56,003 nt of DNA. Origin: a virus. Lineage: Duplodnaviria; Caudoviricetes. The position numbers and the translations under genes are program-made. Every line of letters starts with the position of its first letter. Within the stretch, counting starts at the first letter, position 1. This document shows, one piece after another, positions 9,233 to 11,122 of the stretch. The stretch covers positions 1-56,003 of IMG/VR virus record IMGVR_UViG_3300020179_000039. One strand, written 5' to 3'. The notes beneath the pieces are model-generated. The model saw nothing but the letters and a program-made list of their open reading frames with translations, had not been told where the DNA came from and ran no database searches.

Positions 9233-9602
9233 CTGCTAGAAAATTATAGTTTAGTAAAATGTTTCCTTTCTTTGCAACACTCAATGCATCTACAAGTCGG
9301 ATGATTTTTTTACCCTTCCTAGACTTTATTACGTATCCTCTCTTTTCAAGACTTACCATACGATTTCGCACGTTCTGTGAACGCACCTCTGGTTTTTCAG
9401 TATGCTTATATACAATACCAGAAGCACGATCACAGAATAGTCGTAGTTCAATTGGTCCCCATAAGCCCAACAATGTCAGAAGCTCCAAATCACTAGGAAC
9501 AATGTTCTCCTTTTTGAAGAACATTACTTCTGTAATGATTTGGTACTTTACCAGATCGTAGTGATCCAGTCTTACCTTTTTTGTTATTTTGTTTACTTCC
9601 AT
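9180..9602 (-). CDS. putative winged-helix DNA-binding protein
   Basis: SQNVRNRMVSLEKRGYVIK wHTH-like pattern. Confidence 0.55.
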   Translation of the reverse strand: MEVNKITKKVRLDHYDLVKYQIITEVMFFKKENIVPSDLELLTLLGLWGPIELRLFCDRASGIVYKHTEKPEVRSQNVRNRMVSLEKRGYVIKSRKGKKIIRLVDALSVAKKGNILLNYNFLAVETNQEKPNSKEDSGKA

Positions 9603-9622
9603 TTTGGTTTTGTTTCTTAATG

Positions 9623-9748
9623 AATGTCAGTGAGCGAGTTTCACGCTCATTACCTAATATCCAGGATATACTTGCGAGTAAACCCTGTAACCCTTTCCAC
9701 CAAGTGGGGATAGGCGTGTTATTTTTACGCTTACACCAACACGACATT
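9623..9748 (-). ncRNA. tRNA-like RNA with branched insert replacing the anticodon loop
   Basis: Closing stem AATGTC-GT/AC-T-GACATT, D arm TGGTGTAA..ACAC, stem CCTA/TAGG enclosing two hairpins, T arm GAGCG-TGAAACT-CGCTC. Confidence 0.55.
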
Positions 9749-9754
9749 GACTTG

Positions 9755-10129
9755 TGGAGGTGGTGGGATTCGAACCCACGTCCAATAAAGAAGCAGTTCA
9801 ATGCAGCTTATCACATGCTTAGTACTGATCATTTTGTTGACGTCAACGAAATGGTCTGCACCGTAAAGGCACACCAAGTAGGTCGCACTCCACCACTTAG
9901 TTTTACGAACTAAGAAACGTGTTTGTGACTTTCTGTTCCAAGGTTGTCACCACCCGATGACTAGGCAGCAAGTTCTAACTCAGCACCCACGAAAGACATA
10001 GCGTCTTCCCAAGTCATAGACGAAAGTTCAGTTTCGCCGGTTATATTCTGGTACGTGATTATAGAGAGCAGGACCATCTCTCTGCATGTGCATTGACCCT
10101 CGCAGTACTGTCGAAAGCCTTTCACCCCC
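9755..10129 (-). ncRNA. ssrA: tmRNA
   Basis: 5' GGGGGTGAAAGGCTTTCGAC, 3' GGACGTGGGTTCGAATCCCACCACCTCCA; G3:U70 pair; 375 nt; tag ORF 10038-9961 GETELSSMTWEDAMSFVGAELELAA* preceded by ATAACC. Confidence 0.93.
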
Positions 10130-10135
10130 CATATT

Positions 10136-10423
10136 ATAACTGATTTCATTAGGTGGGAATCCTGACTACCCACAAGTCCAACGTATACCCCTTTTAACCT
10201 ATAGTCCAACAGAGTAGCTAATTCTGTTGTGTTGACTAGCTGGATTATCTACCAGCACCTGCTGCAGAGATCAGTATAGTATACTTCGCAGGACTACAGA
10301 GCTTATTGGTTGCGCTCACCTTTAAGATGCATGGTTTTATCTCATATACATGACAACGTGCTTCCTAGTGCTTTTCAGCACAGTGACACTACCTTAACCC
10401 CTCTCAAGAGTTTGTTCAGTCAC
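10136..10423 (-). ncRNA. unidentified structured RNA (~288 nt)
   Basis: Ends pair (GTGACTGA/TCAGTTAT); hairpins GTGCT-GAAA-AGCAC, GCTGG/CCAGC, AACAGA/TCTGTT, GTGGG/CCCAC; lies between tRNA-Met and tmRNA. Confidence 0.55.
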
Positions 10424-10461
10424 AAATGAAAATCAGATTTTTCAAAGAACGATTTATTCTG

Positions 10462-10536
10462 TTGCGGGGGTGAGATTCGAACTCACGTGGTTTGGCTTAT
10501 GAGACCAAGCTGGAACCTACTCCAGTCCACCCCGCC
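10462..10536 (-). tRNA. tRNA-Met(CAT), initiator-like
   Basis: Anticodon arm TTGGT-CTCATAA-GCCAA, T loop TTCGAAT, acceptor GGCGGGG/CCCCGCA with 1:72 mismatch. Confidence 0.85.
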
Positions 10537-10541
10537 TTTAA

Positions 10542-10817
10542 TTACCAGACAATTGCAATGTCTCTTTCAGCAATCATCAAACGAGTTTCACCTTCCACTT
10601 CAATAATCTCTGTGTTCTGAAGAATAATGGCAGGGATGTAAACCTTATCGCCAACTTTTACCAGAGATACCTCCTCACCTACAGCATAAACTTCGAGAGC
10701 TGTCCACTGCTTCATCATTGTTTTTTCAAGCTCTGCTTCTCCTTCTGGAGTAAGGATAACCTTGGATTCAGGTTTTACAGGCTTATTTAATAAAATTCTT
10801 GTTCCTACTAATTTCAT
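10542..10817 (-). CDS. groES: GroES/Cpn10-like co-chaperonin
   Basis: MKLVGTRILL...EVYAVGEEVSLVKVGDKVY...MIAERDIAIVW. Confidence 0.8.
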   Translation of the reverse strand: MKLVGTRILLNKPVKPESKVILTPEGEAELEKTMMKQWTALEVYAVGEEVSLVKVGDKVYIPAIILQNTEIIEVEGETRLMIAERDIAIVW

Positions 10818-10820
10818 AAC

Positions 10821-10892
10821 TTATTTTTTACACCAACCAAAACATATTTTTCCAAAAGTGAGTTTATTGATTAAATTACAGATGTGTTTCAT
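10821..10892 (-). CDS. 23-aa Cys-containing micropeptide
   Basis: MKHICNLINKLTFGKICFGWCKK; A-rich leader; stop 3 nt before groES ATG. Confidence 0.5.
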   Translation of the reverse strand: MKHICNLINKLTFGKICFGWCKK

Positions 10893-10917
10893 ATTTTTTA
10901 GTTTTTTAGTTTTTTAG

Positions 10918-10991
10918 AGCCACCAGTAGGAATCGAACCCACAACCTACTGAGTACAAATCAGTTGCTCTACCAGATTGAGCTATGGTGGC
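10918..10991 (-). tRNA. tRNA-Thr(TGT)
   Basis: GCCACCA/TGGTGGC acceptor, ACTGA-TTTGTAC-TCAGT anticodon arm, GTTCGATTC. Confidence 0.93.
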
Positions 10992-10996
10992 AGGAC

Positions 10997-11122
10997 CTAA
11001 TCAGTTTTCTTTTTTTGTTGGTTTTTCTTAGAAAACTTTTCAAAACCACGGTTTTCGTAGTTCTTATCCTCCATCTCCTCAATCCAACGGTTTCGCTTAG
11101 GTCCTCCTCGTTGCTTTTTCAT
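10997..11122 (-). CDS. 41-aa charged micro-protein
   Basis: MKKQRGGPKRNRWIEEMEDKNYENRGFEKFSKKNQQKKKTD fills the gap between hairpin and tRNA-Thr. Confidence 0.5.
   Translation of the reverse strand: MKKQRGGPKRNRWIEEMEDKNYENRGFEKFSKKNQQKKKTD

Follow-up and report, generated by a model that had tools for sequence, protein, structure and literature searches.

The RNA gene described here lies in a phage sequence of 56,003 bases, IMG/VR record IMGVR_UViG_3300020179_000039 (Caudoviricetes; estimated 47% complete), whose full length is called the window below. The gene belongs to a row on the minus strand comprising, in order, a tRNA-Thr (10917-10991, identified with Rfam and ARAGORN), a 91-codon open reading frame (ORF), a Met-like tRNA with anticodon CAU (10461-10536), the RNA in question (10143-10432, ~290 nt) and a transfer-messenger RNA (tmRNA; 9752-10129, 88.5 bits for RF00023, with a tag peptide found by ARAGORN). 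The CAU tRNA stands 28 nt before P1, the closing helix of the RNA, and the tmRNA begins 13 nt past it. An earlier note on this DNA had proposed a structured, non-coding and unannotated RNA at 10136-10423, between a tRNA-Met and a tmRNA. Kind and placement are confirmed, no Rfam family passing its gathering threshold here other than those of the tmRNA and the tRNAs. The extent is corrected to 10143-10432, from the outer pair of the conserved P1 (10423-10432 with 10143-10152), the profile match (10145-10434) and the indel boundaries in relatives. The RNA is assigned to the minus strand because all flanking genes are on it and the G-U pairs of the comparative structure fit a minus-strand RNA only. 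As the note had also seen, the RNA genes are richer in GC than their surroundings (0.41-0.46 vs 0.29-0.40 in flanking coding DNA) and there is no convincing ORF: the RNA holds just one of 39 amino acids on the plus strand, and an 82-amino-acid ORF with a TTG start overlaps the tmRNA.

Homologues were identified only after several searches. A blastn search of the RNA against phage records gave chance-level matches only (E 4). A first gapped pattern scan returned 56 stretches, eight of them relatives by nhmmer (loci L008, L010, L016, L030, L047, L050, L056 and L057) and the rest chance, and the later search patterns were built from motifs common to these first relatives. The profile search over all fetched loci yielded 46 matches, that is, 30 distinct sequences, of which 26 are distinct and full-length, on IMG/VR phage contigs. 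The 26 homologues form 17 clusters at 85% identity; the most distant pair shares 40% and the closest relative of the window 81%. In 185,579 representative prokaryote genomes (bacterial and archaeal) a pattern scan gave 11 stretches, none matching the family profile at E <= 10, a negative that holds for that one pattern and is no proof of absence.

Comparison of these sequences identifies the flagged stretch as a real, conserved folded RNA gene. On an earlier set of 16 sequences RNAalifold predicted 56 pairs, 43 of them with compensatory changes. The curated structure comprises 16 helices and 79 pairs, and was scored on the final alignment A2 (26 sequences, aligned by sequence with MAFFT). In this set 89.7% of the cells are paired, against 69.0 +/- 0.6% in shuffles (a value reached by 0/500 of them), 64 of the 79 pairs change on both sides (45.7 +/- 2.7 in shuffles) and the covariation score is 0.581, compared with 0.204 in shuffles and 0.095-0.205 when the partners are slid by 1-3 columns. 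Kinship alone can lift related sequences above shuffles; such an artefact is disfavoured by the low values of the slid-partner controls and by the many pair types found per column. The folding energy of the single sequence gives no support: the minimum free energy (MFE) of the minus strand is -85.8 kcal/mol against -78.66 +/- 5.58 for shuffles (z -1.28, 9/100 shuffles as good, which is chance level), and z is -1.25 on the plus strand. It is therefore comparison, not energy, that is decisive for the conserved structure. The earlier note had counted at least five stems besides a GAAA tetraloop hairpin, and the comparison bears out both.

The core of the structure begins with P1, whose 5' strand UUUUCAUUUG (10423-10432) pairs with CUAAUGAAAU (10143-10152) in nine pairs, eight of them changing on both sides (81.6% of cells paired). 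The 5' junction UUGUGACUGAAC follows (10414-10425, manA model positions ~22-34), with the GUGACUGAAUAA core typical of the phage RNA family manA and with columns G15, T16, G17, G21, A22, A23 and A25 invariant in the 26 sequences. The P2 hairpin (10391-10420; helices 2 and 3) has a 7-nt loop, UUGAGAG, is followed by UAAGGU and matches P2 of manA; all eight of its pairs change on both sides and 94-97% of its cells are paired. The P3 hairpin (10359-10389; helices 5 and 6) is capped by a GNRA tetraloop, the GAAA hairpin of the note (10368-10381), whose loop is GNAA (GAAA, GUAA or GCAA) in 26/26 homologues. The long-range helix P4 (10344-10350 with 10182-10188; helix 7, 7/7 pairs changing on both sides) encloses an expanded domain of ~170 nt with seven further helices (8-14) that have no counterpart in canonical manA. 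Among them is the hairpin GCUGG-UAGAUAAU-CCAGC (10239-10256; helix 12), which carries an invariant GGUA...A..CC and is paired in 100% of cells, with two pairs covarying and three invariant. Finally, the P5 hairpin GUGGG-UAGUCAGGAUU-CCCAC (10153-10173; helix 16, manA model positions ~160-182) has the manA-type loop GGUAnnCAGnAAUCC.

Four other candidates were rejected. The terminal 8-bp helix described in the earlier note (GUGACUGA with UCAGUUAU) is indeed present in the window and drawn by the MFE fold, with 8/8 pairs (1.3% of shuffled tails reach 8/8); it is unconserved, with 5-7/8 pairs in the 25 other homologues, at the level of shuffles, and, being perfect in the window only, is not a conserved closing helix. 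The 5' hairpin P0 of the Rfam alignment (AAAAUC..GAUUUU) was dropped, as it overlaps the 5' strand of the covarying P1. A small hairpin UGAG/CUCA around the loop UUAAAACCA is paired in 3-21 of the 26 sequences depending on the column, and the covarying pairing of columns 111-113 with 159-161 fits better. The other long-range candidates from an all-against-all column scan (197-202 with 318-323; the 5' core with the P5 loop) are G/U-rich or barely covary.

Two further elements concern the loops. The strand GAGA in the P2 loop (10402-10405) pairs with UCUC (10267-10270), part of the conserved segment UGAUCUCUGCAG, in helix 4 (97.1% of cells paired). Its columns are GC in 22 and AU in 3 sequences (34-197), GC in 21, CG in 2, UA in 1 and AU in 1 (36-195), and AU in 25 and GC in 1 (37-194); paired changes to A-U were identified in L142, L174 and L162, to C-G in L008 and L056, to U-A in L150 and to A-U plus G-C in L161. 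The two strands may pair within one molecule, as a pseudoknot, or between molecules, the sequence being compatible with both. The second element is a long hairpin (10202-10238; helices 13-14, 10/10 pairs changing on both sides), the apical loop of which contains the palindrome UAGCUA (10215-10220). Its columns in the 26 sequences are UA in 24 (outer), GC in 15, AU in 9 and GU in 1 (middle), and AU in 17 and GC in 7 (inner). A 6-nt palindrome stands in register in 14 of the 17 clusters, and the alleles UGAUCA, UAGCUA (the one in the window) and UAAUUA differ from each other by paired changes. This complementarity is not satisfiable within one molecule because the two central bases are adjacent. 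The apical hairpin of the window is all but identical with the hairpin of the distant L141 lineage, and the closest relatives of the window carry UGAUCA, which suggests that the hairpin was exchanged for one from an L141-like lineage.

The relation to manA (RF01745) was identified below the Rfam cut-off. The match covers 10143-10441 on the minus strand with 29.3 bits (cut-off 55.2, E 2.5e-5), spans model positions 1-192 with ~200 nt of insertions, and, with reporting by E-value, is the only one to a family other than tRNA and tmRNA. A manA match lies at the same locus in 25/25 related records at E <= 1; the canonical controls from Synechococcus phages S-H68 and S-B43 score 82.5 bits. The junction GUGACUGAAnA, P2 and UAAGGU (GUGaCUGAAUAA core) is present with high posterior probability, and the P5 hairpin with loop GGUAnnnAnnAAUCC directly precedes the 3' strand of P1, its invariance being partly imposed by the search pattern. 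In 85 distinct canonical manA sequences from IMG/VR the GUGACUGAAUAA, P2 and UAAGGU junction and the P5 loop (GGUAnnCAGGAAUCC) occur in the same order and in the same helices. The middle of the RNA is where the two forms part. From the 5' core to the 3' core the distance is ~240 nt in the window and up to ~270 nt in relatives, compared with 128-144 nt in canonical manA, and the three-hairpin P3 with a simple P4 (~190-215 nt in total) is replaced by a single GNRA hairpin and the expanded P4. The gene also does not stand in the 5' untranslated region (UTR) of a protein gene, the placement implied by the Rfam class Cis-reg: a tmRNA lies 13 nt downstream and a tRNA 28 nt upstream. On these grounds the RNA appears to be an enlarged, divergent variant related to manA, and not a member by the Rfam criterion.

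What the two forms share is thus the closing helix P1, the junction GUGACUGAAnA-P2-UAAGGU, a GNRA-capped hairpin and the P5 loop GGUAnnCAGnAnnCC before the P1 3' strand, together with their occurrence in phages; some canonical copies are also flush between tRNAs (S-H68, S-B43 and 6/120 IMG/VR loci among the matches listed). The differences are that canonical P3 consists of hairpins with GUGGUG, GNRA and ACCA loops, whereas the long form has one GNRA hairpin and a P4 with seven helices; that the P2-loop pseudoknot and the palindromic loop were not seen in canonical sequences; and that the long form comes from freshwater phages, one lineage of them distantly crAss-like, whereas canonical manA is mostly from marine cyanophages. 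Two views of manA have been published. Weinberg et al. (2010, PMC2864571) considered it probably a riboswitch, located in 5' UTRs, and a recent preprint (10.64898/2026.07.01.735769) reports that manA RNAs of <200 nt form octamers, decamers and an icosahedral shell of 60 subunits with no protein involved. The unit from which they are built is a pentamer held by kissing loops, to which one variant adds a GNRA loop-receptor contact, and the variants have a common core and differing peripheral helices. The words tRNA and palindrome occur 0 times each in the text of the preprint.

The earlier note had compared the RNA with GOLLD and ROOL as a possible new or reduced member of their class. These are reported to be RNA-only multimers or nanocages (preprint and 10.1101/2024.12.08.627333), several hundred nucleotides long according to the preprint. 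Models of GOLLD, ROOL, RNase P, 6S and SRP have no match at E <= 10 in the 1.4 kb scanned (9700-11100), in agreement with the note's remark that the RNase P signature is missing; only manA matches, below its cut-off. The likeness to ROOL and GOLLD lies in their being large, ornate RNAs, and both are often encoded beside tRNA genes. The differences are the missing match, the shorter length of the window RNA and its manA-like core. The analogy holds in kind more than in family, since the preprint sets the manA oligomers beside ROOL and GOLLD: the tie to RNAs beside phage tRNAs stands, and the place of the proposed membership is taken by what appears to be an enlarged, and not a reduced, manA form. 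Another precedent is found in phage T4, the stable RNAs C and D (rnaC, rnaD) of which are non-tRNA species of ~120-140 nt encoded inside the T4 tRNA cluster and matured with the tRNAs. They resemble the present RNA in their placement, as stable non-tRNA species in a phage tRNA cluster, and are not known to have a manA-like core.

The RNA is mostly found beside tRNA or tmRNA genes. A tRNA or tmRNA on the same strand lies within 100 nt of 22 of the 30 distinct copies (11 of the 17 clusters) and within 26 nt of 19; by comparison, 111 of 120 canonical manA loci among the matches listed have no tRNA and six have one flush or at <=49 nt, rough counts as many of these loci are short. All tRNAs in the homologue loci are on the strand of the RNA with the exception of one in L016. 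In L141, L142, L165 and L158 the RNA is flanked on both sides at 3-7 nt from the profile ends, and in L143 a tRNA-like T-arm lies downstream of it. A tmRNA is nearby in the window, L050/L135, L151 and L174. In L173 the RNA follows the apparent 3' end of a tmRNA and is itself followed by a terminator; in L174 the tmRNA lies 190 nt upstream and a terminator just past P1. Both terminators are a stem and a U-run directly after P1, which they do not overlap. A same-strand ORF follows the RNA in L173, L174 and L164. Two observations on short manA-like sequences belong here. In phage S-H68 (L155 1426-2303), and likewise in S-B43, two tRNAs of a six-tRNA array enclose a canonical manA with one base of spacing on each side, and the GenBank records of both phages have nothing annotated at that site. 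The contig of L151 has, 83 nt past its long manA-like RNA, a second and weak manA match of 141 nt (1728-1868; 23.5 bits, E 0.014), which fits flush between a tRNA-Met (1656-1727) and the tRNA that comes next (1882-1966) and may represent a miniature manA-like RNA.

The RNA behaves as a discrete module. The window encodes a portal protein, a large terminase, a DNA polymerase, a ribonucleotide reductase and a tail fibre, and the DNA runs containing it are labelled lake or fresh water. Its large terminase shares only ~25% identity with the terminases of crAss-like, Flavobacterium and Cellulophaga phages, and 141 records match it, all below 60% identity; judged by this protein, a host among the Bacteroidota is probable. 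One relative, whose terminase is 91% identical, has a complete genome of 120,708 bases with terminal repeats. In L058, L082 and L119, with a 95% identical terminase, the RNA and the tmRNA are missing precisely, and the 3' end of the tRNA runs straight into the block that elsewhere comes after the tmRNA; L063 and L129 have the RNA and no tmRNA, and L135 and the window have both. The tmRNA, like the manA-like RNA, thus comes or goes as a clean module among close relatives. The RNA was identified in just 4 of 79 terminase-related loci, although many of these stop short of the site. It is also present in a complete phage of 170,105 bases with no detectable relative of the window's terminase, and the terminase is related in only one of the five other RNA-bearing genomes. 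Because the complete 170,105-base phage carries the RNA without a related terminase, the RNA has moved between phage lineages.

Some features of the neighbouring genes were identified in passing. The upstream tRNA scores 37.9 bits, its anticodon is left unnamed by ARAGORN ('ct') and was read from the loop CUCAUAA in the Rfam alignment, and its D-arm region is unusual; it is kept in L058, L063 and L135. The 28-nt spacer between it and P1 (10433-10460, minus strand; AAAUCGUUCUUUGA...) is conserved between the group of the window and the L016, L145 and L140 groups, where there is no upstream tRNA and a hairpin (CAAGUUUAAACUAAACUUG) precedes the spacer, which may be a shared leader or a processing signal. 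Phage tmRNAs with long, unusual tag peptides recur in the group (window, GETELSSMTWEDAMSFVGAELELAA; L135, L067, L068, L134, L151 and L174). In the poorly aligned middle of the window's tmRNA a 33-base stretch (9887-9919), holding the hairpin CUUAGUU-CGUAAA-ACUAAG, is 100% identical to an intergenic site in five Synechococcus myophages (S-B43, S-B05, S-H68, RN05-S and RB11-B; E 1e-6; L153 1501-1533). The S-B43 copy lies 13 nt upstream of a wcaG RNA (RF01761, 66.4 bits); the wcaG match in the window itself (9881-9963) is at chance level (15.8 bits, E 5.3). The stretch is thus common to a freshwater, distantly crAss-like phage and to marine cyanophages.

Expression was looked for in public RNA libraries. 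Six RNA runs contain small shares of the sequence words of the window and four of them were examined by contig. Three of these runs, which belong to two studies, gave metatranscriptome contigs over 10197-10377, 10197-10419 and 10197-10406, each differing from the window at 5-6 letters, and a contig from the fourth covers 9765-10135, nearly the whole tmRNA. No contig from an RNA library lies over 9500-9734 or 10440-10900, and these uncovered parts carry no evidential weight. Contig ends at 10188 and 10419 abut adapter letters in one run and were not taken as RNA ends. This cover is supportive of expression and is not proof of it.

What the comparisons establish is that the fold is conserved, that the core is manA-like and that the RNA forms a discrete module in rows of tRNA and tmRNA genes. 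The reading preferred here, with a probability of roughly 0.6, is that the gene produces a free, stable RNA of ~290 nt, an enlarged relative of manA that is cut from a tRNA operon and associates with itself. The RNA would be transcribed together with the neighbouring tRNA and tmRNA genes; RNase P, cutting where the downstream tRNA or tmRNA begins, would free one end and 3'-end processing of the upstream tRNA the other, and where no tRNA follows the RNA would end at its own terminator. A promoter scan of the region gave 8 promoter-like sites against 7.5 expected, none placed to account for the unit. Once released, the RNA would act free and not as a riboswitch in a 5' UTR. The P2-loop pseudoknot would tie P2 to the ~170-nt multi-helix domain that replaces the compact middle of manA, a two-fold kissing contact is predicted for the palindromic apical loop, and closed oligomers of higher order could, on the model of canonical manA, arise through other loops and the GNRA loop. 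Self-association is the most economical reading, since it joins the manA oligomers of the preprint with the conserved GNRA loop and the covarying palindromic loop; the oligomers themselves are predicted for this RNA. The mechanism has a parallel in the dimerisation initiation site (DIS) of HIV-1, a palindromic kissing-loop site with unpaired flanks in the apical loop of a long hairpin. Both have a 6-nt self-complementary apical loop with alternative palindromes between lineages, an analogy of mechanism only, in which dimerisation of the phage RNA is a prediction. The steady company of tRNAs and tmRNA points towards a role in translation or RNA handling during infection.

Several points weigh against this reading. 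Kinship with manA is drawn from ~35 nt of common motifs and their placement; none of the 25 related records passes the manA cut-off (~10 to 33.4 bits, some at 10-14), the sequence profile of the long form finds 0 of the 120 canonical loci among the matches listed, and part of the invariance of P5 and of the GGUA hairpin was imposed by the search patterns. The palindrome is not a family trait: the P4 loops of canonical manA are not clean palindromes when the alignment is inspected by eye, three of the 17 clusters (L151, L139 and L150) have no perfect palindrome, and the three alleles represent few independent events. Oligomers of this RNA are a prediction from sequence and analogy, and the preprint worked with RNAs of <200 nt, whose assembly took place in vitro (10 mM Mg, 50 C). 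Processing by RNase P is proposed from the position of the genes, and the library contigs tell neither the strand nor the ends nor the level of the RNA, while DNA may be present in such libraries as a contaminant.

What was found of structure, context and modularity would apply equally to a stable free RNA that works as a monomer, binding a protein, or serving host nucleases or tRNA-processing enzymes as a decoy or as a mimic of their substrates, with the palindrome as the site of a dimeric protein. Palindromes suit dimeric proteins as well as kissing loops, the canonical loops and 3 of the 17 clusters lack them, and the steady company of tRNAs and tmRNA would fit RNA processing or defence against systems that target tRNA. 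However, no gene for a partner protein travels with the RNA and its neighbours vary between lineages (one of five other genomes having a related terminase), the related manA core is reported in the preprint to assemble protein-free, and a 6-nt palindrome with unpaired flanks on a long stem is the layout of kissing-dimer loops such as the HIV-1 DIS; a monomeric function is therefore rated as rather unlikely. Less probable still is a functionless insert, selfish or decaying, such as a mobile RNA element or the remnant of a tRNA-like gene, whose conservation would reflect recent spread. Its variable presence among near-identical phages, its occurrence in phages with unrelated terminases and the seemingly recombined apical hairpin of the window would agree with this. 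Sequences down to 40% identity nevertheless keep 16 helices by compensatory changes, and therefore the fold has been under long selection; moreover, no intron, ribozyme or transposon family matches in 9700-11100 (Rfam, E <= 10), and no repeats or endonuclease gene flank the module, so that this explanation is held to be very improbable.

An improbable reading, though above the insert, is that of a ligand-sensing riboswitch of the manA type (Rfam Cis-reg), controlling read-through into the downstream tRNA or tmRNA or sensing in trans. It would agree with the rating of manA by Weinberg et al. (PMC2864571), with the highly conserved junction nucleotides, with the same-strand ORF after the RNA in L173, L174 and L164, and with the absence of tRNAs from 111 of the 120 canonical loci among the matches listed, which fits a leader role of the canonical form. 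The arrangement of the long form argues otherwise. P1 is 13 nt from the tmRNA in the window and 3-7 nt from the tRNAs in L141, L142, L165 and L158, so near to the flanking RNA genes that there is no room for an expression platform; the terminators of L173 and L174 begin past P1 without overlapping it, the downstream genes are RNA genes in most copies, and a terminator scan from the tRNA-Thr to the end of the tmRNA (9752-10991) gave no terminator-like site. An aptamer with an overlapping expression platform upstream of a regulated gene is thus not what these loci contain. That the RNA stands flush between tRNAs or before its own terminator, is present or absent as a unit and is found in RNA libraries argues that at least the long-form branch is a free RNA and not a leader.

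Within the preferred reading of a free, self-associating RNA, a more specific proposal is possible and is put forward tentatively: the RNA would be the protomer of an RNA-only closed assembly, in which the manA-like core makes the ring contacts, the added domain makes the two-fold contact through the palindrome, and the alleles UGAUCA, UAGCUA and UAAUUA give the assembly its specificity. The prediction is concrete and testable: a two-fold axis should run through the palindrome, and the assembly should change once the palindrome is disrupted. If this proposal holds, the palindrome alleles would keep the RNAs of co-infecting phages from mixing, and manA-type RNAs would in general resemble ROOL and GOLLD as free structural RNAs of infection, punctuated by tRNAs, and would not be riboswitches.

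In the literature consulted (main texts; supplements may bear on this) no description was found of a long manA variant or of manA as an RNA of tRNA arrays. As far as was seen, the apparently new elements are the comparative structure with its pseudoknot, the alleles of the palindromic loop, the clean presence or absence of the module among close relatives, the cover by RNA libraries and the occurrence of the RNA in phages whose terminases are unrelated, a distantly crAss-like one included. Rfam 15 leaves the RNA unannotated and standard pipelines report an empty gap between the tRNA and the tmRNA. The manA family, so far of <~215 nt, gains a form of ~290-320 nt that adds a new domain together with a pseudoknot and a predicted dimer contact. 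The sources of this long form are freshwater phages, among them a distantly crAss-like lineage and one complete phage of 170 kb without a related terminase. The placement of the RNA bears on the question of what manA RNAs do, and the finding ties RNA cages to tRNA operons, as with ROOL and GOLLD.

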